Source: Gemmatimonadota bacterium (GTDB lineage Bacteria; JBHIER01; G020348925). From it: 40,870 bases of DNA. The position numbers and the translations under genes were made by a program. This document shows, in pieces, positions 4,431-37,528 of this stretch (position 1 is its first letter; the number at the start of each line of letters is the position of its first letter). Under the pieces are notes generated by a model. The model did not search any database and was not told the DNA's origin. It was given only the letters and a program-made list of their open reading frames with translations. The DNA is taken from the NCBI GenBank assembly GCA_020348925.1, contig CP070758.1, positions 1,729,160-1,770,029 on the forward strand, written 5' to 3'.

Positions 4431-4530
4431 NNNNNNNNNNNNNNNNNNNNNNNNNNNNNNNNNNNNNNNNNNNNNNNNNNNNNNNNNNNNNNNNNNNNNN
4501 NNNNNNNNNNNNNNNNNNNNNNNNNNNNNN
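4431..4530. other. Scaffold gap (100 N, true size unknown)
   Basis: Run of N. The sequence after the gap does not resume topA in any frame I could recognise. Confidence 0.99.
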
Positions 4531-4878
4531 CCCTGAATCACATACTCTTTTTTGTTGACACCTTCATCATCGTGTTCTATATTATCGAACGGAAATTCTT
4601 CTAATTTGCTGAAAATAAAAAATTGGTCATCACCATCATATATGATTGAGCCGCATAGTGTAGGACATGTCGCAACTCTTGAGTGAAAGAAAATCTGTAG
4701 CACGGAGATGTCTCTAACTTATCACCTGTCAAGCCATAAGGGGTTTTCTGTATTGATTCGATACGGTGATGAAAGAGTATCCATTCAAGCAATTGATGTG
4801 TAGTCGCATATGCAACTATCAGTTGCAAAGAGTGTCCCCTTAAACCCAAGAAAACTTTCATCAACAGGAGGTAATAAG

Positions 4879-12746: not shown

Positions 12747-15267
12747 ATGAACAAAACCAACAGAGATGGCCGGAAAATCATTTTCATCGGAGCGGTCCCA
12801 TTTGTTCTGAGCTTCTCAGTCTATATCCTCAGCCTTTGTCCAACTGTCTACTGGTACGATTCAGGCGAACTCATTTCGGCCTGTTTCAATCTGGGTATCG
12901 CTCATCCCACGGGGTATCCCCTTTACACTGTAGCAGGTCGGATTTTCAGCCTGCTCCCCTTCGGCCATCCGGCATTCCGGATAAACCTGCTATCGGCCCT
13001 CTTCGGCTCGCTGACAGTCGTCATCGTGTATGCTATCACAAAAGAAGTGTTGGCAATTATCTGGGGTAAAAATAACCGCCCAGACAACGGTCGCAGATTT
13101 ACTCTCATGTGCCGAGAAGACATGCCAGCCATTGTTGCCTCCCTCACCTTCGCATTTTCCCCCCTCTTGTGGACCCAGACTCTCATGGCTGAAGTGTACA
13201 CCCTCCATACATTCTTCATCGCTCTCCTCATACTCTGTCTGTTTCGATGGTCGCAATCGTCTGGTTTATCCTCCAGCCATTCCGAAGAAGAGTATCAACC
13301 CGACAATCGGAACCGTGGCGAAAAGGCGAGACGCAATTATAGATACGTGTACCTCTTCAGTTTCATCTTAGGTCTGAGTCTCTGTCATCATCTTACGACG
13401 CTTCTCTTCCTTCCCGCCTTTTTCTTTTTTTTTTCTGGCCACGGATTTTCAAACATCCAGGAATGTAAAAATGCTCACCACCGCCTTTCTCTTTTTTCTC
13501 TTGGGGCTTTCGGCGGACCTTTATCTTCTCCTTCGAGCCCGACTCGATCCCATTCAAAACTGGGGAGATCCCGGAACGTGGGAGCGACTTCTCGATGTCG
13601 TCATCGGGGCGGAGATACGGACCCGCCCCACCCGATATGCGGCCCATACGATTACTGAACTCTTCACCCTTCTTGGAAAACAATTTCTGCTGCCCGGCAC
13701 AGCTCTGGGAGCCATCGGAATCCTTTCGACGATAAGGAGAAAAAAAACTGTCTTCGTTTTCTTCACACTTTTTTTTATGGGCATGGCTCTCTATATCCTC
13801 AGGAACTATGATTTCTTAGAGGATCAATATCTGCCCGTCTTTCTCGTCTTTTCGGTCTGGATAGGTTTGGGGGCACACGAGATTCTCTCTTTTACTGCTT
13901 CGATACGAGCGGCAAACTATTCGCACATGAAGGCTTTCATCGGCCCGGTGATATCCGTTCTGATTCTGAGCGTACCCTTTTCTCTTCTTGCCCTGAACTA
14001 TACCTCTGTTGATAAACACGACCATCGGGTCGCGTACAACTTCGGGGAAAAAATACTGGAACACCTCGATGAGGGAGCAATTTTTCTATCGGAGGGTTCA
14101 AACATACCCCTTCTGCTCGATTATTTCCAGCGGGTGGAGGGGCGTCGAACCGACGTGGCCAACGTCTATCTCTTTCTCATGGAGTTCGACTGGTATCGGG
14201 TACAGCTGTCCCAAAGATTTCCGAATATCTCGGTTCCCATCCTTCCGGACAACATCGTGCTTCGTCTCATCGAACAGAATGTGAAGGATCGCTCCGTCTA
14301 TTACGTCCCTTTTTCGAAGGAACCGAACGTCGACGTCGGTCGCCTCATACCCCATGGTCTCTTTTTCCGCATTGAGCAAAAGCAAACGATTCCGAGTCGA
14401 AGCGAACTTGAGGAACATTTTCTTTTTCAGGGTCGTTTCTACAGCACTTTAACAAGATCCCTGGATCAGGACAGCAAAGACATTCTGGCCCAGCTCCACG
14501 GGACTATGGGGCTCTACTTCGAGCGGATCGGTATGTACGATGAGGCATACAAGGAATACACCAAGGCATTGGAAATCGATTCGCTGAACCCCGGGGTCCA
14601 TTACGACCTTGGCTCCCTGGCCATGGGGCGAGGCTCTTTTAAAGAAGCCATCCAAGATTTTCAAAAGGTGTTGGAGTTCGAACCGTCGAACGTCACCACC
14701 CGCTATTTATTGGCCCAATGTTATGCGCATGACGGCCAATTGATCCCGGCACTTCGAGAAATGGAGGAAGTTGTCCGGACCGAACCGCATGAACCCCTTT
14801 TTCATACCGAGCTCGGAACGCTGTACGGACAGATGGGACGGACAGAGCTGGCCATCGAGCAGTTCCGCCAGGCGTTGGAATACGATCCGTACAACGCGGA
14901 TATTTTATATAACTTGGGCATTGCGGAGGCACTCTCAGACCACCTGGATATGGCCCTACAACACCTCAAGCAGGCGGAGCAACAAGATACGAACCGTACC
15001 GAAATAACCTATGCTCTCGCATCCTCCTATGCCCAAAAGAGGGATTTCCGCGAGGCAGAATATTACTATCTCAGAACCCTGAAACTCGGCGGACAACAAC
15101 CGTCTGTTCTCAGGGATCTGGGCTATCTTTATGCTGAAAGCGGTAACGCGGTCAAAGCCATCGAAACATGGGAGGCGGCCTTGGCTCTTGATCCGAGCAA
15201 CGCCCAGCTGCAGCATGAACTCGTCCGTCTCAGGCACAGAATGAGAACAGACGGGAAACCGGATTGA
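12747..15267 (+). pseudogene. DUF2723 (TMEM260-like GT-C glycosyltransferase) plus TPR protein, frameshifted in a T10 tract
   Basis: The N-terminal part has DSGELI..AHPTGYPLY, AEVYTL and LSLCHH. The C-terminal part has LYLLLRA..NWGDP and a TPR array. Removing one T from 13425-13434 joins the two frames (PAFFFFFLATDFQTSRNVKMLTTAF). Confidence 0.85.
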
Positions 15268-15279
15268 AAAGGAGGGAGT

Positions 15280-15627
15280 ATGAACGTCAAACACCTCGAC
15301 GAGATACCGATTCACACTGTTACGATGCATGGCGCCGAGGGTGTCAAAGTGCGCCGACTCATTTCCGACCTCGACGGTGCCGAGCATTTTGCCATGCGCC
15401 TGTTTGAATTGGAGCCGGGAGGACACACCCCTCTTCACACTCATGATTGGGAACATGAGATTTATATCTTAGATGGAACGGGAATCGTTCATTACGAAGG
15501 GCAAGATTATCCAATGACGTCCGGGACCGTTCTTCTTGTACCCGGTGGAAAGGAGCATCGGTTCCGAAACACCGGCCAAACGCCCCTCCGGTTTTTGTGT
15601 ATCGTACCCCTGAGAGGAGATGTTTAA
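15280..15627 (+). CDS. Cupin domain protein
   Basis: PGGHTPLHTHDWEHEIYILDG and PGGKEHRFRN cupin motifs; AGGAGGG RBS. Confidence 0.9.
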   Translation: MNVKHLDEIPIHTVTMHGAEGVKVRRLISDLDGAEHFAMRLFELEPGGHTPLHTHDWEHEIYILDGTGIVHYEGQDYPMTSGTVLLVPGGKEHRFRNTGQTPLRFLCIVPLRGDV

Positions 15628-15686
15628 GGATTTTCATATTGAGTATCAACACGTCAGCATGGAAGGTCCCTACTGTTGGAATCCGG

Positions 15687-15715
15687 TTGACAATAGAACA
15701 TTGTCATGGTATATT
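15687..15715 (+). promoter_or_regulatory. Putative sigma70 promoter with overlapping inverted repeat
   Basis: TTGACA-N17-TATATT with a TGn extension; TGACAA-N7-TTGTCA palindrome at 15688-15706. Confidence 0.7.
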
Positions 15716-15762
15716 GTGCGAGTAAATTTTAGGGTCCGGCAACATTTTCAACGATTTTCAGG

Positions 15763-17586
15763 ATGTATGCATTGAAAAAAACATCTTTTTACATCTGTCT
15801 CTTTTCACTCCTCCTTGCATGTGTACCTTCTTCACAGGGTGCTGATCTTGATACGAAGAAATTCATGCCGGTCGATGAAGTACGACCCGGTATGAGCGGA
15901 TACGGGCTGACGGTCTTCTCCGGGATCGAGATTGACACGTTTCAGGCTGACATTATCGGTGTTCTCAAAAAAGTCACTCCAAAGGGGGATCTTATTCTGG
16001 CCCGATTGAGCGGTGGCCCTTTGGAAAAAACAGGCGTCCCTGCGGGCGTCAGCGGCAGTCCTGTCTATATCGAAGGCAGGTTGATCGGCGCAGCCGCTTT
16101 CGGCTGGCTCTTCGCCAAGGAACCCATTGCCGGCATCACCCCCATTGGTGAGATGCTCGATCTGTGGGCGCTCCCCTTCGAGCCGAAAGATCATCGAGAG
16201 CCAGGCTCCCTGGGATTCGACATGTCCGGAGAGAGTCCCATCGAAACCATTCCCGTCCCAGAGGATTTCCTCGCAGAATCACGGATTGCGGTTCCACCTG
16301 AAGGGACTTTTCTGAGACAGTGGGGTGCACCTTTGGCCGTGGCCGGTTTTGACGATCGGCTCATTGAATCGATGACGCCAATCTTCGAGCGATTCGGCCT
16401 CACTCCGGTTCAGGGGGGCGCCACCTCGGACGAAAAGGACGCACCCCCTCTTGCACCGGGATCGGCAGTGACGGCCCAATTGGTTCGGGGTGACGCCAGC
16501 ATCAGTGCTGTCGGTACGGTGACCTATCGGGAGGACGACAGAGTGCTCGCCTTCGGCCATCCCCTCTTCCGTGCAGGCGGGATCGATCTGCCCATGACCG
16601 GGGGCGTCGTGCACACCGTTCTCGCCTCCCAGCAGCGCTCCTTCAAGATGGCCTCCCCCACAGCGTTGTGCGGCTCCTTTCGGCAGGACAGAAGGACCGG
16701 TGCAGCGGGACAGGTCGGCCTCGATCCGAAAATGATCCCCTGCGATATAGAAATCATCGGTCACCATTCCGGGCCGTCCGAGCGATACACCTTCGAGCTG
16801 GCCGACGACCCCCTCTTCACCCCCAACCTCCTGGGTTGGACCGCGACGAACGCGCTTCTCGCCAACGGCCAACTCGTGGGCAGAACAACAGTCAAAGTCC
16901 GGGCGACCTTTTCACTGAAGCATCAGACTCCGATCACTCTTGAAAATTTCTATTCCGGCGATCTGACGGCACTGGTGGCTGCCTTGGGGGCAGCTTCCCC
17001 CCTCGCCCTGCTCATGAACAACCCTTTTGAAGAGCTGGATATCGACAACATCTCGCTCACCCTCTGGCCCGAGGAGGAATTACGGTTTGCCGTTATCGAG
17101 GGTCTGCGCACGGATAAAGACTCGGTCAAGCCAGGGGAATCTTTGAATATAACCATTATCATCAAACCGTACCTCGGTTCTGCCATAGTGAAAGAGATGA
17201 CCTTGACGATCCCCGAGGATACACCTGACGGCGTCGTATATATACTTGCCGCGGATGCAAAGACGATCGCAGCCCGGGAAAAATCGAGAGCACCCTACAA
17301 CTATCGACCTGAAAACCTAAAGCAGCTCATCGCACTCTTAGAGGAGCAAGTGCGGAACAATGAAATTGTCGTCTCCAGCTACAAGCCGTTTCACGGAATT
17401 ACAATAAAAGGTGAAGAGCTTCCCTCACCACCAACCTCTCTCCTGAGCGTCATGACCTCCTCCAAGGAGAAGGGAGAAACAGGACCGACGAGGGGCATCA
17501 TCCTCGATGAAGAGCGAATAATGACGGACCACTTCATTGTCGGTCATCAAACCTTAACCCTCACAGTTGACCAGAAGGCTAAGTAG
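15763..17586 (+). CDS. SpoIVB-like peptidase S55 domain protein (secreted)
   Basis: PGMSGYGLTVFSG, AGVSGSPVYIEGRLIGA, GITPI and AFGHP motifs; N-terminal signal peptide. Confidence 0.88.
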   Translation: MYALKKTSFYICLFSLLLACVPSSQGADLDTKKFMPVDEVRPGMSGYGLTVFSGIEIDTFQADIIGVLKKVTPKGDLILARLSGGPLEKTGVPAGVSGSPVYIEGRLIGAAAFGWLFAKEPIAGITPIGEMLDLWALPFEPKDHREPGSLGFDMSGESPIETIPVPEDFLAESRIAVPPEGTFLRQWGAPLAVAGFDDRLIESMTPIFERFGLTPVQGGATSDEKDAPPLAPGSAVTAQLVRGDASISAVGTVTYREDDRVLAFGHPLFRAGGIDLPMTGGVVHTVLASQQRSFKMASPTALCGSFRQDRRTGAAGQVGLDPKMIPCDIEIIGHHSGPSERYTFELADDPLFTPNLLGWTATNALLANGQLVGRTTVKVRATFSLKHQTPITLENFYSGDLTALVAALGAASPLALLMNNPFEELDIDNISLTLWPEEELRFAVIEGLRTDKDSVKPGESLNITIIIKPYLGSAIVKEMTLTIPEDTPDGVVYILAADAKTIAAREKSRAPYNYRPENLKQLIALLEEQVRNNEIVVSSYKPFHGITIKGEELPSPPTSLLSVMTSSKEKGETGPTRGIILDEERIMTDHFIVGHQTLTLTVDQKAK

Positions 17587-17602
17587 CTCATTTTTCTTCT
17601 TT

Positions 17603-19558
17603 ATGAAAGACACAGAATCCGGCGCTCTACACAATCTTAAGAATAATGAGACAAAAACTTACGAGGAATTAGGCCTCAAGGCAGGCGTCGAGATTCACCA
17701 GCAGCTTCTCACGGACCGAAAGCTCTTCTGCCGGTGTCCGGCGGGTATCTATACAGAGGATCACGACGGTGAGGTGCTTCGTCACATGCGTCCGACCCTT
17801 TCCGAGCTGGGTGAATACGACGGCACGGCCCTGATGGAATTCAAAACGAAAAAGCAGGTCCTTTATCTCTTGCACAGAGATTCGGTGTGCACCTATGAAA
17901 TGGATGACACCCCGCCGTTTCTTGTCAACCAGCAGGCCCTCGACATCGCCATCGAAATCGCCCTCCTTCTGGGGTGTACCATCATTGACGAGATGCATGT
18001 CGCCCGCAAACAGTATCTGGACGGCAGCATTCCCACAGGATTTCAACGGACAGCAATTGTCGGTGTCGGAGGATCTCTGCCCTATAATGGGCGAACGATC
18101 GGGATCCGGCAGGTGAACCTCGAGGAGGACGCCTGCCGTGAGGTGAACGATTGCGGTCACACCATTACCTTCAGGACAGACAGGCTCGGAATGCCGTTAG
18201 GGGAAGTGATCACTGAGGCTGAAATGCATACTCCTGAAGACGTAGCCGGCGTTATCGAACAGCTGGGTCGTCTCATGAGGGTTACCGGAAAAATACGGCG
18301 GGGCATCGGGTCCGTGCGCCAGGATGTCAATGTCAGTATCACCGGTGGTACCCGTGTCGAGATCAAAGGGGTCCCGCAAATCCCCTGGGTGGCCCCGTTG
18401 GTGCACAACGAGGCTTGGCGACAGAAAGCACTGCTGGAGCTGCGGGAGGAACTTCGCCGCCGGGGGATCTCATCCGGGACACTCCGCTACGAGATTCATA
18501 AACTGTCAGAGGTGTTCAGGCAGAGCCGATACCCTCCGCTCCGAAAAGCGGTGGAGAATGGGGAGACCATTCGCGGCATAAAAATCTGCGGCATCCGCGG
18601 TCTGTTAAACTTCCCGGTTCAACCAGGAATAACGTTTGCCGACGAGATTGCCGGCCGGGTGCGGGTTATCGCCTGTCTGGATACACCCCCGATACTCATA
18701 AACACTGATGATTTTCCTAAGTACGACGGCCAGGAGCGCGAACTCACTGCTATCCGGGAAACGTTTCACTTGGGCATCCCGGATGCGGTCCTCATCTGTC
18801 ACGGTTCAGACAGGGACACGAACACGGCGGTGGACGAGATTCGGCTTCGGATAGCAGATGCCATTGAAGGCGTACCGAATGAGACACGGCAGGCTTTCTC
18901 CAACGGCACCACCGATTTTGAACGCATTCTCCCTGGGCCAGACCGGATGTATCCGGACACCGACCATCCGCCGGTAAAAATAACCGAGTACCGGGTACGT
19001 AGAATCTTGCGGAGAGTTCCTGAGAAACCTTGGGTGCGAGGGGACAGTTATCTTCGTATGGGCGTATCCGAACACATTGTGAAGGAAGTGGCCGAATCTC
19101 CCCGGGCCACATTTTTCGATAGAGCTGTGCGAGATCTCGATCTTGGATCAAAGCTGATTGCGGAACTTCTTGTGGGGAAGATGAAAGCCTTGCGCCGGTC
19201 CGGGATTCCAGTCGAGGCCATCACCGACGAAAAGTTGTTCGATTTTTTTTCTGAGATGGCCCGTGGGGGGGTCTATCGAGAAGGATCAGAGTCAATTCTC
19301 ACCACTATGGCTTGGAATCCTGATCTCTCGGTAAAAGAGATTTTGGAGAAATTGGATATGACTCCGTGGTCCGAGGAGGCTTTCAGGGATCTCGTTGCCG
19401 ACGTCCTCTCCCGTCATCCTGACGAGGGGGGGAAAAATCCTTGTTCGCACGACAAGTTTGTGAGAATCGTAATGGGCGAGGTGATGAGAGAAGTTCGAGG
19501 GAGGTTTTCTGGGCGGGGTGCCGCCGATCTTGTGAGAGAAATAATGGAGGAGGAATGA
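17603..19558 (+). CDS. gatE: Glu-tRNA(Gln) amidotransferase subunit E
   Basis: GLKAGVEIHQQL..KLFCRCP, RPTLSELGEYD, EMDDTPP, DGSIPTGFQRT, RRGIGSVRQDVNVSI and PGPDRMYPDTD, plus the large central insertion typical of GatE rather than GatB. Confidence 0.93.
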   Translation: MKDTESGALHNLKNNETKTYEELGLKAGVEIHQQLLTDRKLFCRCPAGIYTEDHDGEVLRHMRPTLSELGEYDGTALMEFKTKKQVLYLLHRDSVCTYEMDDTPPFLVNQQALDIAIEIALLLGCTIIDEMHVARKQYLDGSIPTGFQRTAIVGVGGSLPYNGRTIGIRQVNLEEDACREVNDCGHTITFRTDRLGMPLGEVITEAEMHTPEDVAGVIEQLGRLMRVTGKIRRGIGSVRQDVNVSITGGTRVEIKGVPQIPWVAPLVHNEAWRQKALLELREELRRRGISSGTLRYEIHKLSEVFRQSRYPPLRKAVENGETIRGIKICGIRGLLNFPVQPGITFADEIAGRVRVIACLDTPPILINTDDFPKYDGQERELTAIRETFHLGIPDAVLICHGSDRDTNTAVDEIRLRIADAIEGVPNETRQAFSNGTTDFERILPGPDRMYPDTDHPPVKITEYRVRRILRRVPEKPWVRGDSYLRMGVSEHIVKEVAESPRATFFDRAVRDLDLGSKLIAELLVGKMKALRRSGIPVEAITDEKLFDFFSEMARGGVYREGSESILTTMAWNPDLSVKEILEKLDMTPWSEEAFRDLVADVLSRHPDEGGKNPCSHDKFVRIVMGEVMREVRGRFSGRGAADLVREIMEEE

Positions 19559-20943
19559 ATACATCCGATACCCTGAAGGGCTACAAAGGCAGTGCCAAGG
19601 CCAAGCTCAAAGAGATGGGCGTGAGGGTCTGGAGCGACGTGGTCGTCAGGACGGCCAAAGGTGAATTTAAGGGGGTTATCCTTCCCCGGAGTGAGACTGA
19701 GGACGATCGACACGTCGTGCTCAAGCTTCATTCCGGTTACAACGTGGGGGTCCGCGTCGACACCATCCAATCGATCGAAGAACTGGGTTACAAGGAAGCC
19801 CATTACAAGATCCCCGAACGCGACTTCCCCCAGGATGCCGCCAAACCCAACGTCACACTTTTGGGCACGGGGGGAACCATCGCCAGTCGCTTGGATTACC
19901 GGACCGGGGCCGTCATTCCGGCCTTCACCCCTGGGGAATTGTACGGAGCCGTGCCTGAGCTGGCCGATATCTGCAACCTCAAGACCATAAAGCTCTACGG
20001 TGTCTTCAGCGAAAATATGGGGCCGGAGCAATATGTCGCCACCGCTCGGGCCATTGAAAAAGAGATCGAGGCAGGTGTTGACGGGATCGTTATCGGCCAC
20101 GGCACGGATACGATGCACCACACATCGGCCATTCTCTCCTTCATGGTGCAGAACTCTCCCGTCCCCATCGTCCTGGTCGGTTCCCAGCGCTCCAGTGACC
20201 GCCCCTCCAGTGATGCCGCCCTGAATCTCATCAATGCCGTCCGCTCGGCGGCTTACGGCGATATTGCCGAGGTGGTCGTATGCATGTTCGGACCGACGAG
20301 TGATGAATACGATCTTCTGCATCGCGGTACCCGCGTCCGTAAAATGCACTCCAGCTACCGCAGCACCTTCCGCACCATCGGCGACATCCCCTTGGCCATG
20401 GTCTACCCCGACCGGTTTACCTATCTTACCTCCGATTACAATATGCGACGGAAAGATCGCCTTGTACAAGTCGATACGGCCTTTGAGGAGAAAGTGGCCA
20501 TTGTCTATTATTACCCCAACATGCAGCCCGATATCATTGAATCACTCATCGATCATCAGTACAAAGGAATCGTCATCGCCGGCACCGGTCTCGGCCACGT
20601 CAACAAGCCTCTCTATAAACCTCTCAAAAAGGCTATTGATAGCGGGATCTCCGTCGTGATGACGGTGCAGACCTTATGGGGTTACGTCCAGATGTACGTC
20701 TACGACACCGGACGCGATCTCCTGGACATCGGCGTTATCCCCTTGGAAAATATGCTGCCCGAAACGGCCTACATGAAGCTCTGCTGGGTCTTGGGGCACA
20801 CTACGGAACACGAAAAGGTTCGGGAGATGATGCTTACCCCTATCAACCATGAGACAACCGAGCGGGAACCCCACAACGGCTACCTCATCTTACAGGGAGG
20901 TATTCCGGAGGTGGACACCTTTGTATCGTCACTCAGGAAATAG
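19555..20943 (+). CDS. gatD: Glu-tRNA(Gln) amidotransferase subunit D
   Basis: GatD N-terminal domain (VLKLHSGYNVGV); asparaginase-fold TGGTIAS and HGTDTM; GSQRSSDRPSSD and RKMHSSYRSTF; ATGA overlap with the gatE stop. Confidence 0.95.
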   Translation: MNTSDTLKGYKGSAKAKLKEMGVRVWSDVVVRTAKGEFKGVILPRSETEDDRHVVLKLHSGYNVGVRVDTIQSIEELGYKEAHYKIPERDFPQDAAKPNVTLLGTGGTIASRLDYRTGAVIPAFTPGELYGAVPELADICNLKTIKLYGVFSENMGPEQYVATARAIEKEIEAGVDGIVIGHGTDTMHHTSAILSFMVQNSPVPIVLVGSQRSSDRPSSDAALNLINAVRSAAYGDIAEVVVCMFGPTSDEYDLLHRGTRVRKMHSSYRSTFRTIGDIPLAMVYPDRFTYLTSDYNMRRKDRLVQVDTAFEEKVAIVYYYPNMQPDIIESLIDHQYKGIVIAGTGLGHVNKPLYKPLKKAIDSGISVVMTVQTLWGYVQMYVYDTGRDLLDIGVIPLENMLPETAYMKLCWVLGHTTEHEKVREMMLTPINHETTEREPHNGYLILQGGIPEVDTFVSSLRK

Positions 20944-20996
20944 GACTACTGCATTCACGAACCATCAATTATTACGGAGATCTCTGCTATTTCCCC

Positions 20997-21044
20997 TTGA
21001 TCGTTTTCAAAGAAACCATTATCTTAGCTAAAAAGTTGACTAAG
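20997..21044 (+). promoter_or_regulatory. TA operon promoter and probable operator
   Basis: TTGATC-N17-TATCTT followed by TTAGCTAA and TTGACTAA (near-)palindromes within a CTTAG...CTAAG inverted repeat. Confidence 0.55.
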
Positions 21045-21056
21045 GAGGTGGCTTCG

Positions 21057-21284
21057 ATGTACCAGGTCAATATACATGAGGCGAAAACGAATCTGTCCAA
21101 GCTCATTAAAAAAGTGGTGGACGGGGAAGAGGTCGTTATCGCCAAAGGAAATAAGCCTCTCGTAAAAATGGTTTTGCTGAACGGAAAGAAACCCAAACGG
21201 ACATTGGGGAGCGCGAAAGGCACATTGAAAATCTCCAAAGACTTCGATGCGCCTTTGAAAGATTTTGAAGAGTATATCAGGTGA
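21057..21284 (+). CDS. Type II TA antitoxin, Phd/YefM family
   Basis: VNIHEAKTNLSKLI..GEEVVIAKGNKPLVKMV; AAGGAGG RBS. Confidence 0.92.
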   Translation: MYQVNIHEAKTNLSKLIKKVVDGEEVVIAKGNKPLVKMVLLNGKKPKRTLGSAKGTLKISKDFDAPLKDFEEYIR

Positions 21285-21667
21285 AGTATTTAATCGATAC
21301 GCACACCCTGCTCTGGATCCTGACAGATGACTCCAGATTAAGTAAAAAAGCAAAACGTTACTATCTTGATCCCCAAAATGAGATTCTGTTCAGTATGGCA
21401 GGTATTTGGGAACTGGCAATAAAATCAAGTCTGGGCAGACTCTCATTGGAGAAGTCCCTGGAGGAATTTGTAATGAAACATATCAAGGGTAACGACATTG
21501 GTATCTTACATATTGAGCTTCCTCACGTCTTGAGAGTAGAGCAATTACCCTTTCATCATCGGGATCCCTTCGATCGATTGCTCATTTCCCAGTCGATCGA
21601 AAATGATTTGCCGATAATCAGTTCTGACAAAACTCTTGACCGCTACAGAATACAACGCATCTGGTAA
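21281..21667 (+). CDS. vapC: Type II TA toxin, VapC/PIN family
   Basis: YLIDTHTLLW, SMAGIWELAIK and HHRDPFDRLLISQ motifs; GTGA overlap with the antitoxin gene. Confidence 0.92.
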   Translation: MKYLIDTHTLLWILTDDSRLSKKAKRYYLDPQNEILFSMAGIWELAIKSSLGRLSLEKSLEEFVMKHIKGNDIGILHIELPHVLRVEQLPFHHRDPFDRLLISQSIENDLPIISSDKTLDRYRIQRIW

Positions 21668-21670
21668 AAA

Positions 21671-22519
21671 TTGAGCAACGACAAGGATAAGATAAAGAAA
21701 CAAGACGTACTACTGGGCATCAAGCACGGGAGAACGTTATCCCAGATTCTGTTTCTGGGTCTGACCGTCTGGGTAGCCTACCGCATGCTGAGCGGCGTGC
21801 GGGGGGCGACCATCGAGAAGTACTGTCCCTTCGGCGGCGTCGAGACGCTGTTCCCCTGGCTCAACAAGACCGGAACGCTGTGCAGCCTGTCCACGATGAA
21901 TATCTCTGTGCTTGCCGGTGTTCTCCTCATCACGCTTCTTTACAAACGCGCCTTCTGCAGCCACATCTGCCCGGTGGGCGCTCTGTCCGAGTGGATTGCT
22001 CTTATCGGCCGCCGTTACATCATAAAATCCCGGCGTGTGCCCTCGAAAGTAGACCGCCCACTGAAGTGGCTCAAATATCCTGTGCTCGCACTCATCGTCT
22101 GGGGCACAGTCCGTGTCGGGGAACTGATCTTTCGTGAAGTCGATCCGTACTATGTCCTCTTCACCCTCGGTCGCGGCCACGGGATTGCGGAGGGCGTCAT
22201 AGGGATCGGCGGTTACAGCCTCGTCATCATCCTTATCCTATTCGGCCTCAACGTCGTGCTTCCACTGGCCTTCTGCAAGTATCTCTGTCCCATGGCGGCC
22301 TGTCTCAACCCTCTGTCCAGAATAGGATTGATTCGCGTTCGACGAAACCCGGACACGTGCATTGACTGCAGACGGTGCGATGTGACCTGTCAGTGGGGGG
22401 TCAAGGTGTCGGACGTGGGCAGTGTTGGAAGCGCAGAATGCAGCAACTGCCAGGACTGCGTGCGCAGCTGCCCGGTACCGGATACGCTCACATTGAGTTT
22501 CGGAAGGAGTCGATCATGA
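21671..22519 (+). CDS. Polytopic membrane 4Fe-4S protein (NapH/MauN/YccM-like)
   Basis: FCSHICPVG and FCKYLCPM motifs plus two C-terminal CxxCxxCxxxC motifs; TM helices. Confidence 0.85.
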   Translation: MSNDKDKIKKQDVLLGIKHGRTLSQILFLGLTVWVAYRMLSGVRGATIEKYCPFGGVETLFPWLNKTGTLCSLSTMNISVLAGVLLITLLYKRAFCSHICPVGALSEWIALIGRRYIIKSRRVPSKVDRPLKWLKYPVLALIVWGTVRVGELIFREVDPYYVLFTLGRGHGIAEGVIGIGGYSLVIILILFGLNVVLPLAFCKYLCPMAACLNPLSRIGLIRVRRNPDTCIDCRRCDVTCQWGVKVSDVGSVGSAECSNCQDCVRSCPVPDTLTLSFGRSRS

Positions 22520-22887
22520 AGATCCCGCTCGGATGGCTGACCCCGTTGGTTCTTGTGTCCTTCATCGGCGTCATTCTCGCCGCCAACCTCTGGGAGCTGC
22601 CCACCCAACAGCATCAGTTCGGGGAGACCTCCGCGAAAACTCAAGAGATCCAGATGATTGTGGACGGCCTCCGCTGCCGCGGGACCTCGAACTTCTTTTT
22701 GAGCAAACTGTCCGATGTGGACGGACTGATATCGGTCAATACATTCGTGCAGGAGCACCGCGCCGTTATCGTCTTCGATCCAGCCCGGATCTCGGTGGAG
22801 GAGATCCGGAGGATGATCGAAGCTCCGGTTCGCCTCCGGAACGGCCGCATCGTCCAGCCCTTCGCTGTGCGAGAAGTCTGGGAATAA
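22516..22887 (+). CDS. Membrane-anchored heavy-metal-associated (HMA)-like domain protein
   Basis: N-terminal TM segment, then VDGLRCRGTS...DGLISV...AVIVFDPARISVEEI; ATGA overlap with the upstream gene. Confidence 0.7.
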   Translation: MKIPLGWLTPLVLVSFIGVILAANLWELPTQQHQFGETSAKTQEIQMIVDGLRCRGTSNFFLSKLSDVDGLISVNTFVQEHRAVIVFDPARISVEEIRRMIEAPVRLRNGRIVQPFAVREVWE

Positions 22888-23059
22888 CCCGAAGGCTTCA
22901 CCATACTGCTGCGTAATTGGGCCGAAAAACCCTCACAGACAGGAACGTCACCGCAATATTCGGGCGGCTGACAGCCGATTTCCAAAAATTGCCGCTTTTT
23001 CGGGTTGTGGAAGTTCACTCGTACACCCGTTTATTTCTTTCATTCAATAGGAGGTAGAA

Positions 23060-23907
23060 ATGAAAGCCCTGCTTCTCTTCTTTGCATGTTGCTCGGCCGC
23101 CTATGCAACAAACAGTGATCTGTCACTCGAGATCAACTCCTCTCCCGATTCGGCACAAGTCTATGTAAACTACCAGTTGAAGGGCACGACACCTCTCTCA
23201 CTCAGCTCGCTTCCGCAATGAAATTTCGCGCTCACCTTAGAGAAAGGGAGATACGAACCGTTTCAAATGCAATTCTCTGAATCACATGGGAAATATCGGA
23301 TGGGAATTGATTTAATCAAACCATTGATCGCAAGGGACATAGAGAAGAACACAAAACACTTCAGATTAACAAAAAGAATCGTTTCGGGCATAAACTTTGC
23401 GCTCACCATAGGCGGTATTCTGTTCAGTCGAAGGGCATCCATTGAGTTTGAAGATTACGAGAAAGCCCTCTTTTTTAACAGCGATCCATCAACGTATGTC
23501 GAATCCAATGTTGACAGGTCGAACGTCTTCATAATCTCAGGCACAGAAACAAGTTTTATTCCATCTGCTCTGAATTTTTTCCTCTTTCCCGCAATAATAC
23601 TTATACGGGGAACCATGCCTATTATTTCGATAAAAAATACGTGCAGTCCAGGCAGACGGATTGTTTCATCAGTGCGGTTGTTCATCTGATAGGTGCATTG
23701 GTCTTGAATGGCGAACTCAATAAAATCGAAGAAGATGAAAAGAGCGCTCTCTGGAAAAGCGATTTTTCCGGGATGAACAGGAAAAAGAGTTTTCGGGCAG
23801 CTTCCAATATCATGTTTGCGTTGGGTGCCATTGACTTACTGCATGCGCTATACCTGCATCTCAGGAAACCGGAGGTACAAGACTACATCGAATTTGAACC
23901 TTATTAG
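23060..23907 (+). pseudogene. PEGA domain-containing protein, disrupted
   Basis: AGGAGG RBS, signal peptide and PEGA motif (INSSPDSAQVYVN..KGTTPLSL..LPQ*NFALTLEKGRY) with an in-frame TGA at 23219-23221; probable frameshift near 23600-23640. Confidence 0.7.
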
Positions 23908-24107
23908 GCCTTGCCGGCAATCAGTCCAGCCCCAGATGAGTCCTCAATACCATTCTGGAACGCGGTGAATGTTCAGAAATAGATAATAGCATTCCTGGCT
24001 TATTCGTACGGCTTCTTTGCTCAATAACGAACCGCAGAGCCTGGATATTAGTAACTCGAGGTTATCTTGACGGAGAAATTCAATTGAAATTCCTGCCAAA
24101 AAAAATC

Positions 24108-24136
24108 TTGATATTTCAATTCCTTTGATTTAATAT
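24108..24136 (+). promoter_or_regulatory. Putative sigma70 promoter of the sdhA operon
   Basis: TTGATA-N17-TAATAT about 150 nt upstream of the start. Confidence 0.5.
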
Positions 24137-24284
24137 ATTCCAGAACAGCCAGACATAAATTTGTCGGACTTCAGAACGGGAACTCTCGAATCATGTGATT
24201 GTCAGAACTCTCGCCTGGAGCATGAAATATTCGATTTCAACACCAGCCACAATTAAAAAAGAGAGAGTATAAGAGGAATTCACA

Positions 24285-29114: not shown

Positions 29115-30332
29115 CTATTTCATGAGTACCATTCTCTTCGTGTCCGTGAACTCATCAGCCACAATCCGGTAGAAGTAGACGCCACTGGGCAAGCCTGTCG
29201 CGTCCCAATTCATGCTGTAATACCCGGCTTCCAGCTCAGTATCAACCAAGACCTCCACCACTTGACCCAACGTATTGTGCACAGTGAGCTGCACCTCACT
29301 GTCCTCCGGCAGACCGAACTCGATACTTGTCTCTGGATTGAAGGGATTGGGGTAGTTTTGGGCCAAGGCATACTCTGCCGGCACGGGCCCGGCCATCTTG
29401 AACCGCGGCGGCCGTCCCACCTCCAGGGTCACGTCGTCCGTCTGCGTCGTGCTTCCATCATCGCCCATAACAGTCAACACATAGCTCCCCGGATGCACAC
29501 CACGCGTCACCTGGATCACCAACATCACCGTCACCGACCCACGGGCCGGCACCATCACCACAGCGCCGGGATCGAAATAGTACCGCCTCGTGCCAAGCGG
29601 CAGGCCCATCACACTCAAACTCACCGCACCGGTGTAACAATCGACTGAACTGACCGTCACATCGTAGTTGGCCGTCCCCAGAAAACCGCCAAACCATTCC
29701 ACCCTGGCCACGTCCGGAGAGGCCGACACCTCAAAATCAGGACTGCCTGCCATATCAGGATCGTTCTGGTCGATCAAACCGTCACAGTCGTTGTCCTGAC
29801 CGTCACACACTTCCGCATTGCCCGGATAGTTGTTGGGATTGGCGTCATCGCAGTCGCAGTCATCTGCCCACCCGTCGCCGTCTCCGTCCGGAGAGGGGAC
29901 CAAGGGATTGGGATCTATGGCGTCCGGACATCCATCGTTGTCGTCGTCATCATCGCATACATCCCCAACTCCATCCACGTCAGCATCTTCCTGGCCAGGG
30001 TTAAACACGCTCGGGCAGTTGTCGAGGAGATCCTCTAATCCATCACCATCGCTATCCAGCCCAGCCGAGGCCGCGAGATATCCCCCCAAGTTCTTGTAGC
30101 TCGCACTCTCGCTCTTGCCCAGAACCGGCTCGCCACCCGCACTTTCCTTCATCTGGTATGTTCCGGATATACCAGACCCGGCAAGGGCGAGGATGGCACA
30201 TTTCTTCTCCCTGTAGTTCTCACTGGCCTTCTCCTGTGTGTTGGCTATCAGTACGGCAAGGAGTAAGCCCAAACAGAGCAACAGGACAATCTCCGCTCGT
30301 CCCTGTCTCCTCCTCTTTCTTTTGCCAACCAT
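29115..30332 (-). CDS. Secreted protein with thrombospondin type-3-like Ca-binding repeats, a MopE-related Cys/Asp motif and a C-terminal T9SS-A-like sorting domain
   Basis: Hydrophobic N-terminus; [64 protein letters not shown]...SGVYFYRI...KRMVLMK. Confidence 0.85.
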
Positions 30333-33439: not shown

Positions 33440-36400
33440 CTATTTCATCAGCACCATCCGCCTCGTGGCCGTAAAATCTCCAGATTGCAGTCGATAGAAA
33501 TATATGCCGCTCGAGATCTCATGGCCTTCCTCGTCCAGCCCGTCCCAGGTCACTTCGTAATACCCCGGCTCCTTCACCTCATCCACCAGCGTCCGCACCG
33601 CCTGCCCGAGGATGTTGTAGATCTTCAGGGTGGTGTGGACGGCGGATCTATTATCTGCTATCTGGTATCTGATATCCGTGCTGGGGTTGAAGGGATTGGG
33701 GTAGTTCTGTGACAGATGAAATTCCGTCGGGACACCAATCGCTTTTTCGACCAAAGTCATGAGTCTCTCAAAATCCTCGTCCGTAAGGTATGATCGAAGC
33801 GACTGCAGAAAGACCAGAGCGTCCTCTGAAATGGTGACCCTGGGAAGGCCGGGCACACACTCGCCGATACCCAGGATCACATTTACGATGGACAGAGCAT
33901 CGAGAACATCGTACTCCAGGTCACCGTTGCAGTCTGCCCGCAGGAGGGCGTTCCCTTCCAGAGGTACAAGTGTTAGGATATGATTGACAACGGCCAGGAC
34001 ATCCAGCACGTTGATGCTGCCGTCACCGTTGGGATCGCCAATAATAGTCGACTCCTCGCGGCCGAAGAGGAAGTCGTTCACGTAACCGACCTGCTCCTCG
34101 TAAGCATCGTACAGAGGAATCGGTATGACACTGGCGCGGCCCCACTCGGCGTCCTCGGGGAACATCTGATCTGCCGACGGACACTGGCTCAGGCTCGCCG
34201 CCATACGAATGGGGACATGATTCAGACATTTCTCCCTGACTATGTCCGGATCGTCGAATTCGATCTCAAGAAAAACATCGAAAAAGGATTCGCACGGCAT
34301 GAGACCTGTGGGATCAATTTCGATGATCTCTCCTGTAGAGGGCACATCAGGTCGCTGGGTAACCGTTACCGGCCCCAAACTGGAGCTTCCTGTCAGACTC
34401 ATCTCCACGATTTCCGTCTGGATCTCGGGGACGCCGTCATCATTCGCGTCATCCCAGTCACACCGGCTGACCACCACCGGACCTGTCAAATCCAGAGCCA
34501 CATCGCCAAATCCCGCAAGGTTCACATACACCGTCGCGCCGACATTGAGAGCCTCCGTAGCCACAACGCACGACCTGTCCACCCACTCTGGGAAGGAGAA
34601 GGTTAGGTACTCGGATTCCAGAATACCATCGGGAAGCTGTTCCACGCCGGTCTCGATTTTGAGCACCAGTTCAGGCTCCAGGCAGACGTTGCCCAGGGGA
34701 TTGGACACCCACAGCTCTACCGTCCCCATCTGACCTTCAGGCACAAAGAGCGACCACTGGTCCGGCTCCAGCTGGCCGAGATTCTCACCGAGGAGCTCCA
34801 CCGTACTCCCCTCAGGCAGCGTGACATCATAGGCATAGATGTTGAAATACGCCACCCCCAGTCCCTCGGCACCACCGATGGAAATGGGCATCATGGTCCG
34901 ATGGTCACTGCTTTCATACATATCCACGACGCTCCACTTCTTCCAGCCCACCATGGTCTCCGTCTCCAGGAGAAACATCCCGTAACCGATGGTGAGGGGG
35001 TAAAAATCGGCAAAAGATGCATTGGTGAAGGTGTGCCTGGCCCCATCACCGGTCAGGGTCATCACATCACCTGCCAGACTCCCCACCTGTGGCGTGAACG
35101 CGCCGAAAAGATACTCGGCATAATAGGGCAGGATGGAGACTTGGGGCGGATAGAGTTCGCTCGGTGCGTAATACCAGTAGTCGACAAAGGTCTCCTGGGG
35201 CGTGAAGAAGGTGTCCGGGGGCACCCAGGTCGTATCCGGCGGGGGAACGCGCCCGCGGTCTCCGCGGGGCTTCGACATGTGCGCCAGCGGTTCACCGGGG
35301 CAGTGGTACAGTTGCGGATGGGACGGGAAGGTGTCGGGCAGCGGATAGTACCCCCTCGAAAAGTCCGTGATGACCTCATCGTAAGCCTCGGACCAGGTGA
35401 AGCCGTCTGGCACACCGTCGTCATTTTGACCCTGGGCCGCAGCAGCGATGAGCTGCTGGATGAAGATCCGCTCGAAGTAGGAGTGGGCAGTGTCAGGTCC
35501 GGCGTTCCTACACCTGCTGGTCTCGTTCCAGTTGGCTGCTGTGACGATATTGACTTCACAGGGTGCCCTCAGGTCGCCGGCGGACGTCCACTGGCGGCAG
35601 AGCAAATCTTTAATATTGGAGGCGATCCCCCCGCTGAAACAGCAGTCGATCTCAATATTCAGCCTGTCAAGACCGGCGTCCACGCAAACCTTGATCATGT
35701 TGGCAAAATCTGCGTCCCTCAATCCCTGATTCCCCCACAGCACCAGGTACTGGGGCACATTGATGAGGGTACCGCCGACGGTATTATCCCCGTCCACATC
35801 GATCCCCTTTATATGAATATTTCCATCCGCATCAACGGTGAGACTCGAAAAACCATTTGGGGCCGTGACTTCAACCCCATCCCGAAACAGGCGGTACGTC
35901 CCGTCCGAATACCGCCTGATCTCAAAGGTGACCTGCTGACCGGAAGCCGTCGCCTCCACCGTTCGGCTTAACCGGATAAATCCGGCCGGAGGTATGGCGA
36001 GCGGCCCGAACACGAGCTCAGCATCCCTCTCCGCCTGATGATCGTCCGTAATGGTCGTCGAATCGCCGTGACTGACGTTCGCCCCGTGGGAGGAGATGAG
36101 GATCTGCAACTCTGTGTTTAAACACCGGTTGTGGCAGTCCCGGATGCTGTCGGCGAAGGCGGAAAACTGGCTCTGGATGTTGGCCGAACTGGCCCCCTGA
36201 GGTGCGGGAGGCCGGGGAATATCGCGTTTGGGTGGGCCGGGGTTCCAGACGCTGTTCGTCAGGGTATTGTATTGGGACCATCCATTCGCCGCAGTGAAGG
36301 GGGCACCGGGTACACCGCCACCCTCCCAGAAGACAGCGAGATGATCTGCCTCGTATCCCCCGTAGCCCAACTTATAGATGAGCTTGAGACACATGTCGTT

Positions 36401-37528
36401 GTATACGGCGTTGCGGATGCGATCGGAGTCGTTGGCGGCCGTACAGATAATCATGGCAAACCGGCACCAGTCCTCCTCAGCCAGGACGCCGCCCTCTTCA
36501 ATGAGCTTATAGAGATCGCCCTCCGTCTCCGATCGTCCCTTCGTCTTCGGAGAGGCGGAGACGACAGTGGGATTTTCCAGACAGACCGACGTCTCCACTC
36601 CGAATTGCGGACGGTGATTGTATTGGCACAAGATCCCCTCCAGAGTAACCCACCGCTCGTTATAGTCGTATCCGTACAGCGTGACGAAGTCGCCCACGAG
36701 GATCTCAGAATAGGGGTAGATCAACTTCTGACGCGCGTAATTCTCGTCAAGGCAGAGGTAGGCGTAGTTACCGCTGGCCGTGAGAAAACCGTTGACCTCC
36801 ACAGGATCGCCGGCCGCCAGTTCACCGCCAACCCATTTGGCATACACCTCGGATACAGTCAGAGCAGCGCCGCCGGTGTAAACGCCTCCCACTCTGACGA
36901 GGGCATCCCCTTCCGTTACGGTCAACCAGGATCCGCCGCTGTTCAAGCTGATGGTGGTCCGCTGGGTCGTGGTGCCGTCGTCGTCCAGGGCCGGCCACCA
37001 ACCCGATCCAGGATATGGACCACCGGGTGCGAATCCATAAACGATGTGAAAGTCCTGGCCGGCGCTGAAGCCGATGGGACCTGCCACATCAAACTGGACC
37101 CAAGTGAGATGCGGTAGGGGTGGGGATATGGCCCCCACATATGTTGCCGGCCACACCGGTTTCCCAGTACCGTCATCCGCTGCGACATAGAGATTGCAGC
37201 CGTTCGTCGCATTATTGAACTCATTCATCACGGCGAAGTAGATCGACAGAAGAGAAAAATCGAAGGTCGGTGTAAACCTGACAGCGATATACGTATTCGG
37301 GCTCGTTGAGATGAAGCCTATGAAACCGTTGTCGTACTGTATTGTATCAGGTTGCGGGCTCGTGCGATCGTCACTCGTGGCTTTTTTCTCGACATCAATC
37401 GCCTCGAACCGGGCCGGCTCGAGGCCGGTCCGGCCCTGGTCGGCCTGAGTGGAAAAAACGCTCAGTATGCCGAGATTCAGAATACAGATGCAGACCAACA
37501 GATCTGCAATTCTTCGTACTCTTGGCAT
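33440..37528 (-). CDS. Large secreted multidomain protein: clan CD (caspase/legumain-like) protease domain, beta-rich domains, dockerin type I, C-terminal FlgD-Ig/T9SS-A-like domain
   Basis: Signal peptide and AGGAGG RBS; ILISSHG and IEIDCCFSGG; GDPNGDGSINVLD...[24 protein letters not shown]...WDGLDEEGHEISSGIYFYRL...RRMVLMK. Confidence 0.8.
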   Translation of the reverse strand: MPRVRRIADLLVCICILNLGILSVFSTQADQGRTGLEPARFEAIDVEKKATSDDRTSPQPDTIQYDNGFIGFISTSPNTYIAVRFTPTFDFSLLSIYFAVMNEFNNATNGCNLYVAADDGTGKPVWPATYVGAISPPLPHLTWVQFDVAGPIGFSAGQDFHIVYGFAPGGPYPGSGWWPALDDDGTTTQRTTISLNSGGSWLTVTEGDALVRVGGVYTGGAALTVSEVYAKWVGGELAAGDPVEVNGFLTASGNYAYLCLDENYARQKLIYPYSEILVGDFVTLYGYDYNERWVTLEGILCQYNHRPQFGVETSVCLENPTVVSASPKTKGRSETEGDLYKLIEEGGVLAEEDWCRFAMIICTAANDSDRIRNAVYNDMCLKLIYKLGYGGYEADHLAVFWEGGGVPGAPFTAANGWSQYNTLTNSVWNPGPPKRDIPRPPAPQGASSANIQSQFSAFADSIRDCHNRCLNTELQILISSHGANVSHGDSTTITDDHQAERDAELVFGPLAIPPAGFIRLSRTVEATASGQQVTFEIRRYSDGTYRLFRDGVEVTAPNGFSSLTVDADGNIHIKGIDVDGDNTVGGTLINVPQYLVLWGNQGLRDADFANMIKVCVDAGLDRLNIEIDCCFSGGIASNIKDLLCRQWTSAGDLRAPCEVNIVTAANWNETSRCRNAGPDTAHSYFERIFIQQLIAAAAQGQNDDGVPDGFTWSEAYDEVITDFSRGYYPLPDTFPSHPQLYHCPGEPLAHMSKPRGDRGRVPPPDTTWVPPDTFFTPQETFVDYWYYAPSELYPPQVSILPYYAEYLFGAFTPQVGSLAGDVMTLTGDGARHTFTNASFADFYPLTIGYGMFLLETETMVGWKKWSVVDMYESSDHRTMMPISIGGAEGLGVAYFNIYAYDVTLPEGSTVELLGENLGQLEPDQWSLFVPEGQMGTVELWVSNPLGNVCLEPELVLKIETGVEQLPDGILESEYLTFSFPEWVDRSCVVATEALNVGATVYVNLAGFGDVALDLTGPVVVSRCDWDDANDDGVPEIQTEIVEMSLTGSSSLGPVTVTQRPDVPSTGEIIEIDPTGLMPCESFFDVFLEIEFDDPDIVREKCLNHVPIRMAASLSQCPSADQMFPEDAEWGRASVIPIPLYDAYEEQVGYVNDFLFGREESTIIGDPNGDGSINVLDVLAVVNHILTLVPLEGNALLRADCNGDLEYDVLDALSIVNVILGIGECVPGLPRVTISEDALVFLQSLRSYLTDEDFERLMTLVEKAIGVPTEFHLSQNYPNPFNPSTDIRYQIADNRSAVHTTLKIYNILGQAVRTLVDEVKEPGYYEVTWDGLDEEGHEISSGIYFYRLQSGDFTATRRMVLMK

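Follow-up and report, generated by a model that had tools for sequence, protein, structure and literature searches.

Introduction

The two-subunit, tRNA-dependent amidotransferase GatDE was presented as an "archaeal signature protein" in 2008 (PMC2330236), as occurring "exclusively in archaea" in 2009 (PMC2811023) and "only in archaea" in 2021 (PMC8007984), and it is also assigned to archaea in PMC8762117 (2022), PMC9499178 and PMC7373986. The enzyme also serves as an argument on the entry of glutamine into the genetic code. We report here on an intact gatE–gatD gene pair in a bacterial genome, carried by a stretch of 40,870 nucleotides (assembly GCA_020348925.1 of a Gemmatimonadota bacterium, contig CP070758.1, positions 1,729,160 to 1,770,029 of the forward strand), which is called the window below and in which positions are counted from its first base. 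No published report of a bacterial GatDE was found in the open-licence PMC and bioRxiv literature, and one may exist elsewhere; public annotation already gives the name GatE to many proteins of bacterial metagenome-assembled genomes (MAGs).

Crystal structures are available for two archaeal enzymes, from Pyrococcus abyssi (PDB 1ZQ1) and Methanothermobacter thermautotrophicus (PDB 2D6F). In M. thermautotrophicus GatE, the magnesium ligands His15, Glu157 and Glu184 are essential by mutation, and the GatD active site comprises a nucleophilic threonine and a Thr-Lys-Asp triad (PMC2330236). Amidotransferases of this kind read the first base pair and the D-loop of the tRNA (PMC2330236, PMC2811023), and canonical GatDE reads A1-U72 (PMC2330236). 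GatE and GatB are paralogues that perform the same reaction chemistry (PMC2330236), whereas the glutaminase subunits differ, GatD being asparaginase-like and GatA of GatCAB an amidase; moreover, GatDE has no GatC. In bacterial GatB, a 3-10 turn adjoins the first tRNA base pair, where archaeal GatE has a short basic loop instead, and a role has been proposed for a GXXAXGX motif in the GatE tail (PMC2811023).

The pair in the window shares with the archaeal enzymes its two-subunit make-up, its domain order and its full-length alignment, together with the magnesium ligands, the Thr and Thr-Asp-Lys residues and the short basic loop. By contrast, it is found in a bacterium that has both GlnRS and AsnRS, and its GatE is only 29–33% identical to the proteins of the clade to which the crystallised enzymes belong (clade A, see below).

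An intact gatE–gatD pair

Both genes are complete and overlap by the four bases ATGA, with the stretch GGAGGAGGA directly upstream of the gatD start (Table 1). GatE scored 564.6 bits on the NCBI curated equivalog model NF003107 (cut-off 456) and 469.5 bits on TIGR00134 (cut-off 319.55), but stayed below the cut-offs of all six GatB models (314.8 and higher), the best score being 165.6 bits against a cut-off of 338. GatD reached 521.7 bits on TIGR02153 (cut-off 324) and a lower score, 388.4 bits, on the type I asparaginase model TIGR00519. Alignment of GatE to the P. abyssi chain 1zq1_C was continuous over residues 9–629 of the latter (378 bits) and that to 2d6f_C was full-length (338 bits), while GatD aligned end to end with 2d6f_A (410.9 bits) and 1zq1_A (409 bits). 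The Pfam GatB_N match to GatE spans residues 26–463 of the protein but profile positions 2–274 only, which indicates an insertion within the domain; the alignment with P. abyssi GatE is unbroken across this stretch.

The GatD_N domain separates GatD from plain asparaginases. A type I asparaginase stands alone, has about 330 residues and lacks this domain, whereas the protein in the window has 462 residues, carries GatD_N, scores higher on the GatD equivalog and has its translation coupled to that of gatE; GatD and type I asparaginases nonetheless have fold and catalytic residues in common. GatE, for its part, is set apart from GatB by its scores, by the missing 3-10 turn and by the lack of any gatA match in the genome. 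By these family and domain comparisons, the pair is one of true GatE and GatD, and neither GatB nor a plain asparaginase. A translationally coupled pair with its catalytic motifs had been proposed in the original prediction, which would have failed had the proteins clustered with GatB or type I asparaginases, and the overlap, the scores and every residue checked bear the proposal out.

Indeed, the three GatE magnesium ligands are all represented (Table 1): the first column holds His in 83 of the 84 bacterial clade-B GatE rows of our alignment and a gap in the remaining row, and the two others hold Glu in 84/84 each. Thr108, Thr184, Asp185 and Lys263 of GatD are likewise present, and are invariant in all 51 aligned GatD rows. 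In more than 80 bacterial genomes of many phyla, both subunits thus keep open frames of full length and catalytic residues that do not vary, which points to purifying selection on the known chemistry, and the region very probably encodes a functional amidotransferase. From a mechanistic point of view, and by homology, GatD would hydrolyse glutamine or asparagine to ammonia; GatE would bind a mischarged aminoacyl-tRNA, phosphorylate its side-chain carboxylate with ATP and magnesium, and amidate the activated carboxylate with the ammonia from GatD.

The tRNA-binding parts of GatE are of mixed character. The basic loop has the GatE-type length, two residues shorter than in 6/6 aligned GatB rows, so that the enzyme is without the 3-10 turn with which GatCAB meets U1-A72. 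The tail carries HDKFVRI where canonical GatE has GXXAXGX, and the motif is not conserved: its exact form was seen in 0/84 bacterial and 0/27 archaeal clade-B rows, and in 6 of the 14 clade-A rows, while a partial form (..GP) is kept in 12/27 archaeal clade-B rows against 0/84 bacterial ones. Among the bacterial clade-B rows, 23/84 are shorter than 600 residues and lack the YqeY-like, D-loop-binding tail altogether (e.g., L022, L023, L030, L036–L038, L049, L056 and L059), some of them perhaps cut by contig ends.

A bacterial host

The host genome is a MAG of 5.04 Mb, 96.3% complete and 0.52% contaminated, in whose record about 205 contigs are strung together with spacers of 100 N. A spacer of this kind lies in the window (Table 1), so that the contig described as gap-free in the original prediction is so from position 4531 only, at the start of the 180,389-base piece that holds gatDE. 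This fragmented record, and the GC content of gatDE (55.0% against 49.8 ± 3.6% in same-size windows, the 94th percentile of the genome), are what an archaeal contig or a chimeric join in a bacterial bin could appeal to. Tetranucleotide distance, however, lies at the 82nd percentile, and the composition of gatDE is ordinary, not that of an outlier. The same piece also carries a GWxTD protein, an OPT transporter, SdhA, SdhB and fumarase, a SpoIIE/GAF (RsbU-like) phosphatase, an anti-sigma-type kinase, and two large secreted proteins with the C-terminal sorting domain (Por_Secre_tail) of the type IX secretion system (T9SS), one of them of 1362 residues with dockerin and FlgD-Ig domains. These sorting-domain proteins, judged from their domain content, point to a host of the FCB group.

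Elsewhere in the genome are a tmRNA gene, a fragment matching the bacterial small-subunit (SSU) rRNA model, a bacterial-type GluRS/GlnRS pair and a bacterial-type AspRS of 596 residues. Logan contigs of two sediment runs bridge the gatDE junctions at even depth: in run X1, one record spans 15133–17747 and another 18941–24997 (about 11–12x), and in run X2 three records span 17566–18438, 18440–20384 and 20355–21447 (about 7–9x). As these runs may be the source samples of the MAG, they stand for an independent assembly and not for an independent sample. Bacterial contigs also carry the nearest homologues, among them two closed chromosomes of Zixibacteria. The gatDE contig is bacterial and not chimeric, as its bacterial flanking genes had led the original prediction to expect, and an artefact of binning or assembly is extremely improbable. 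The archaeal host expected of a GatE, as an archaeal signature protein, is therefore replaced here by a bacterial one.

Origin and spread

A search of the GTDB species genomes returned 114 stretches encoding a GatE relative, of which the best 80 were kept. By their titles, 78 of these 80 loci are bacterial and 2 belong to Thermoplasmata/Thermoplasmatota, which, together with the ordinary composition of the pair, speaks against the single event of domestication first imagined for this genome. The bacterial loci bear 13 or more phylum labels, all of them the submitters' own, including Zixibacteria, Planctomycetota, Myxococcota/Deltaproteobacteria, Pseudomonadota, Ignavibacteria, Bdellovibrionota, Fermentibacteria, Stahlbacteria, WOR-3, CSSED10-310, Coatesbacteria, Mcinerneyibacteriota, Elusimicrobiota and UBP14; the closed Zixibacteria chromosomes are OY969724.1 and CP070796.1. 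A search of a protein collection gave at least 8000 candidates, the best named matches listed (KSB1, Oleimicrobiaceae, Planctomycetota, Brocadiia and Clostridiales MAGs) being 48–60% identical to the GatE of the window and four unnamed proteins 69–76%. Around the host genome itself, 6 of the 40 other genomes sampled have GatE above the cut-off. The only one of the same family (G001, 87% complete and 7% contaminated) has GatB instead of GatE, along with GlnRS and an AsnB-like match, and so does not allow a clean story of displacement.

Two trees rooted on six bacterial GatB proteins gave the same picture, namely a FastTree of 131 GatE/GatB rows (rows below 450 residues and duplicates of the window left out) and a quick IQ-TREE of 56 rows thinned at 60% identity; the archaeal sample in both is centred on one lineage and holds no named reference archaea, and branch support was estimated by quick methods that give SH-like values. 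Clade A unites 12–13 archaeal rows with one row from the bacterial set (L012). The GatE of the window falls in clade B, as do all 78 named bacterial rows and 24–27 archaeal rows; the two most basal rows of this clade (L127 and L110) are archaeal, and without the most basal one, L127, the clade has an SH-aLRT of 99. Inside it, a Thermoplasmatota group (support 97) is sister to 28 bacterial rows and one archaeal-set row (support 83) in the IQ-TREE. The GatD tree is concordant, with a bacterial clade (support 98), the archaeal L127 as its sister and the partners of clade A outside. The crystallised enzymes were placed by bit scores, which for the two crystallised GatE chains were 538/509 with a clade-A protein, 378/338 with the window and 334/340 with an archaeal clade-B protein, and which therefore put them with clade A.

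The position of bacterial GatE within archaeal diversity agrees with the inter-domain transfer supposed at the outset. These trees are best read as pointing to an old transfer of GatDE from archaea to bacteria, from a Thermoplasmatota-related lineage, and, because bacterial phyla are intermixed in them, as suggesting much later spread from bacterium to bacterium. The closest archaeal counterparts, those of Thermoplasmatota-related archaea (e.g., L097 and L131), belong to the same clade, are 40–50% identical to the GatE of the window and have similarly low scores on the crystallised chains (334–340 bits). They differ from it in accompanying a clade-A copy in nine genomes (G041, G042, G043, G051, G057, G059, G063, G067 and G078; loci L097–L135), in which the clade-A copy adjoins gatD, whereas the clade-B copy has no adjacent gatD in the fetched 3-kb flanks.

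Two loci stand apart from this pattern. L085, on a contig titled uncultured Thermoplasmata archaeon, has the GatD closest to that of the window (gatD at 329–1696 of the locus, 74–75% identity); this GatD nests within a WOR-3/Stahlbacteria/Mcinerneyibacteria group in the GatD tree, and the same genome has a clade-A gatE on another contig, so that the L085 contig may be mis-binned or may reflect a recent transfer. L012, from a genome of the bacterial sample (G016) that also has GatB, encodes a GatE resembling those of clade A (558 bits on TIGR00134), next to a GatD; the locus may stem from an independent second arrival of GatDE among bacteria or may be a contaminant.

The archaeal comparison set combined the genomes in which the two Thermoplasmat(ot)a loci lie with 40 genomes related to one of these. 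Ribosomal protein S8e was found in 28/41 of its genomes and elsewhere matched only four archaeal controls. In 10 of the 41 genomes (G046, G047, G049, G050, G052, G053, G056, G066, G068 and G081), no GatE match was seen at E <= 1e-60; S8e is present in seven of these ten, an AsnRS-family match in all and GatB in none.

Inventory of the host genome and putative substrate

GatDE is the only amidotransferase found in the host genome. The GatB_N family search matched gatE alone, tblastn with six GatB proteins again returned gatE as the sole match, and no match to gatA was seen; GatCAB, which had been thought to be either lost or restricted to asparagine, was thus not found. A glnS gene (743 bits) adjoins the single gltX (566 bits), and asnS is also present (482.5 bits), so that GatDE is not the needed route to Gln-tRNA(Gln) that the original prediction had made of it. 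The AsnRS search also matched one bacterial-type AspRS and one further class II synthetase of 516 residues. As to asparagine synthetases, asnA had no match in the genome, and the best match to asnB (60.9 bits against a cut-off of 267) covered no more than a glutaminase domain belonging to other enzymes. Apart from gatD, the genome has no gene with an asparaginase domain.

Both tRNA(Gln) genes and the tRNA(Asn) gene, read from their sequences, have U1-A72, G73 and D-loops of 7–8 bases, whereas the D-loop is of 11 bases in tRNA(Asp) and tRNA(Glu); the former has G1-C72, and in the latter G1 faces U72 within the gene limits set by ARAGORN. The archaeal-like tRNA(Gln) identity suggested earlier is therefore absent. 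In the single AspRS, the residues aligned to H31 and G82 of the Asp/Asn ligase of Pseudomonas aeruginosa (PDB 4wj3_M) are His39 and Gly91, at positions where the Asp-only AspRS of Thermus thermophilus has Leu and a deletion. Bernard et al. (2006) reportedly implicated these two residues in tRNA(Asn) recognition. We take the His/Gly pair to mark a non-discriminating AspRS, and by this rule the host enzyme would be one.

On this inventory, we tentatively propose Asp-tRNA(Asn) as the main in vivo substrate of GatDE in the host, with a confidence that stops somewhat short of even. AspRS would mischarge tRNA(Asn) and GatDE would convert the resulting Asp-tRNA(Asn) to Asn-tRNA(Asn), amounting to tRNA-dependent asparagine synthesis, while GatDE would probably still be able to amidate Glu-tRNA(Gln). 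Since neither AsnA nor AsnB was found and AspRS carries the His/Gly pair, amidation of Asp-tRNA(Asn) is favoured over a second route to Gln-tRNA(Gln); that U1-A72, G73 and a short D-loop are common to tRNA(Asn) and tRNA(Gln) in this host was also counted on that side. The basis of the preference is a precedent in GatCAB. AsnRS, GlnRS and GatCAB occur together without AsnA or AsnB in 18/547 bacterial genera, where the amidotransferase is used for asparagine (among the systems of this kind, Deinococcus, Thermus, Bdellovibrio and Legionella), and tRNA-dependent asparagine synthesis has been demonstrated for that pattern, with a tRNA(Asn) bearing U1-A72, in Bdellovibrio (PMC4206432). AsnRS and GlnRS also occur with neither an amidotransferase nor AsnA/B in 9/547 genera (PMC4206432). 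The host resembles the bacteria with GatCAB in having AsnRS, GlnRS, one amidotransferase and neither AsnA nor AsnB.

Several points weigh against asparagine. The host genome is in about 205 pieces, so that a gene reported absent is one that was not found, and a 502-residue open reading frame (ORF; L145:1372-2880, at about 4.63 Mb) matches the Asn_synthase domain weakly and over part of its length (30.5 bits), without a glutaminase domain, as a caveat to the missing asparagine synthetase. Characterised GatDE converts only Glu-tRNA(Gln) (PMC2811023), and the extra insertion domain by which GatE departs from GatB was predicted by modelling to clash with AspRS in a transamidosome (PMC2330236). In archaea that have only a clade-B GatE, the ancestral job of the clade should be Glu-tRNA(Gln). 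Finally, AspRS was classed by the H31/G82 rule as reportedly established by Bernard et al. (2006).

The canonical role, that is conversion of Glu-tRNA(Gln) to Gln-tRNA(Gln) on a tRNA(Gln) with U1-A72, as a second route beside GlnRS or as a clean-up after an incompletely discriminating GluRS, is an alternative only somewhat less likely than the asparagine reading. The pair passes the curated GatE and GatD equivalog models, every characterised GatDE is a Glu-amidotransferase (PMC2330236, PMC2811023), and at least six S8e-positive genomes of the archaeal set (G054, G058, G060, G061, G076 and G077) yielded a GatE of clade B and no other, archaea being stated to lack GlnRS (PMC9499178). On the other hand, GlnRS is present in the host and adjoins the only GluRS, its tRNA(Gln) genes lack the A1-U72 that canonical GatDE reads, and, as of 2014, no bacterium was known with both routes to Gln-tRNA(Gln) (PMC4206432). 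The carriers would thus be either the first bacteria with two such routes or the first with a GatDE used for asparagine.

Two candidate tests did not help. At the site equivalent to T. thermophilus R358, which presumably has a role in discrimination, the host GluRS carries Arg; the same Arg was found in 25/25 primary GluRS of genomes with GatE and without GatB, including four without GlnRS, so that this marker, although it would speak against the canonical role, was dropped as uninformative. One genome, G116, has a second GluRS paralogue (L193) with Tyr where all 25 primary enzymes have Arg, and this may be GluRS2-like. The archaeal set was likewise rejected as a test of an Asp-amidotransferase role of clade B, with AsnRS above the cut-off in 35/41 genomes and GatB in 1/41.

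Other GatE-bearing bacteria

Of the 80 GatE-bearing genomes, 50 were surveyed, picked to spread across the list; they are MAGs, in which absence again means not found, related genomes among them are not independent, and the cross-tabulation was done by hand. GlnRS was found in 32/50 and GatB in 23/50, with both in 10 genomes, GlnRS only in 22, GatB only in 13 and neither in 5. AsnRS was found in 48/50 (44 above the cut-off), AsnB above the cut-off in 25/50 and AsnA in 7/50. For the canonical role, the five genomes that show neither GlnRS nor GatB are favourable, while the GlnRS of the 32, and the presence of GlnRS or GatB in 45/50, are not.

The survey is not kind to the asparagine reading either. 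Among the 22 genomes with GlnRS and without GatB, 14 have AsnA or AsnB and eight have neither. AspRS was found at E <= 1e-80 in 22 of the 27 GatB-negative genomes, and of the 21 that cover the position equivalent to H31, 15 have Leu there, two have Met and no more than four have His. Most genomes with GatE and without GatB therefore have the Leu seen in discriminating enzymes, which makes Asp-tRNA(Asn) unlikely as a general substrate and favours the canonical role. The 100%-complete genome G005 has GatE, GlnRS and AsnB but no GatB, so that an unmet need for asparagine cannot explain the retention of GatDE everywhere. Two further genomes of 100% completeness have GatE and GatB without AsnB, one with GlnRS (G036) and one without (G017). 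GatDE is kept in bacteria that seem to need it for neither amide aminoacyl-tRNA, and the proposal of Asp-tRNA(Asn) partly fits, namely in the host genome and a minority of the other GatE-bearing genomes.

This redundant-looking context in many hosts, including the 14/22 genomes with AsnA or AsnB, raises another explanation, in which GatDE has a different job, on another acyl-tRNA or a substrate other than tRNA, or is a dispensable passenger. The tail-less forms among the bacterial rows, the toxin-antitoxin pair that abuts gatD and the lack of conserved neighbours suggestive of a pathway would suit it. It is nonetheless improbable in view of the full-length frames and invariant catalytic residues described above, of an identity of 62–75% among bacterial GatD proteins, and of the retention of all tRNA-binding domains in the GatE of the window.

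A broader version of the asparagine proposal would cover the bacterial part of the clade: bacterial clade-B GatDE may be an independent amidotransferase of bacterial style, re-tuned from A1-U72 to U1-A72, would amidate both Asp-tRNA(Asn) and Glu-tRNA(Gln), and would have displaced GatCAB in many uncultured lineages, being in the present host the sole route to asparagine together with a non-discriminating AspRS. We regard this as less likely than not, though far from remote; if true, GatDE would be neither an archaeal signature nor specific for glutamine. Independently of the substrate, an intact GatDE clade under 13 or more bacterial phylum labels, including closed chromosomes and usually found beside GlnRS or GatCAB, undercuts the status of GatDE as an archaeal signature. 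The sequences were already in databases; what is described here is a clade-B GatDE of bacteria that has lost the tail motif, meets tRNAs of bacterial identity and looks redundant in its context. How an amidotransferase re-learns tRNA identity could be followed here as in a natural experiment, with A1-U72 against U1-A72, the loss of the tail motif and the tail-less forms.

Features of the locus and neighbouring genes

The features of the window are collected in Table 1. An ORF ends 16 bases upstream of gatE, downstream of a promoter-like site, and this ORF, gatE and gatD may, judging from their arrangement, form one transcription unit. The ORF is not conserved beside gatE in other loci; indeed, when the ORFs of the window were compared by tblastn with 86 GatE loci, nothing proved conserved other than gatE and gatD themselves, and the operon context therefore gives no clue to the role of GatDE.

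Table 1. Position of gatE, gatD and other features in the window.
Feature	Position	Strand	Description
Assembly spacer	4431..4530		100 N
Promoter-like site	15687..15715	+	TTGACA, 17 bases, TATATT; upstream of the following ORF
ORF upstream of gatE	15763..17586
gatE	17603..19558	+	ATG to TGA, 651 aa, intact frame; kinase/transamidase subunit, GatDE-type tRNA-dependent amidotransferase, clade B
GatE cradle (catalytic) domain, including inserted domain	17678..18991	+	Pfam GatB_N, residues 26–463
His32 codon	17696..17698	+	Aligns to Mg ligand His15 of M. thermautotrophicus GatE
Glu174 codon	18122..18124	+	LEEDA motif; aligns to Mg ligand Glu157
Glu201 codon	18203..18205	+	Aligns to Mg ligand Glu184
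Short basic loop of GatE	18278..18337	+	Residues 226–245, ..KIRRGIG..; site of the bacterial GatB 3-10 turn
GatE YqeY-like tail domain, D-loop-binding part	19112..19543	+	Pfam GatB_Yqey, residues 504–647, 48.4 bits
GatE tail residues 616–622	19448..19468	+	HDKFVRI; position of the canonical GXXAXGX motif
ATGA overlap	19555..19558	+	Four bases common to the gatE stop and the gatD start
gatD	19555..20943	+	ATG to TAA, 462 aa, intact frame; asparaginase-like glutaminase subunit
GatD N-terminal domain	19633..19779	+	Pfam PF18195 (GatD_N), residues 27–75, 54.4 bits
Asparaginase and Asparaginase_C domains	19849..20832	+	Pfam, residues 99–426; hold Thr108, Thr184, Asp185 and Lys263
Phd/YefM-type antitoxin	20997..21284		37.9 bits
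PIN-domain toxin	21281..21667		45.2 bits
T9SS sorting-domain protein	29115..30332	−	Secreted; Por_Secre_tail
T9SS sorting-domain protein	33440..37528	−	Secreted; Por_Secre_tail

The overlapping antitoxin and toxin genes begin 54 bases downstream of gatD, so that the absence of a mobile element, as first stated for this locus, has to be put in softer terms. The sigma70 promoters listed among its bacterial features are matches to the consensus only, eight of them against 4.3 ± 2.2 expected. Elsewhere in the genome, at 405376–405474 of its sequence, lies a tRNA-Sec (UCA) gene, and the host organism probably uses selenocysteine.

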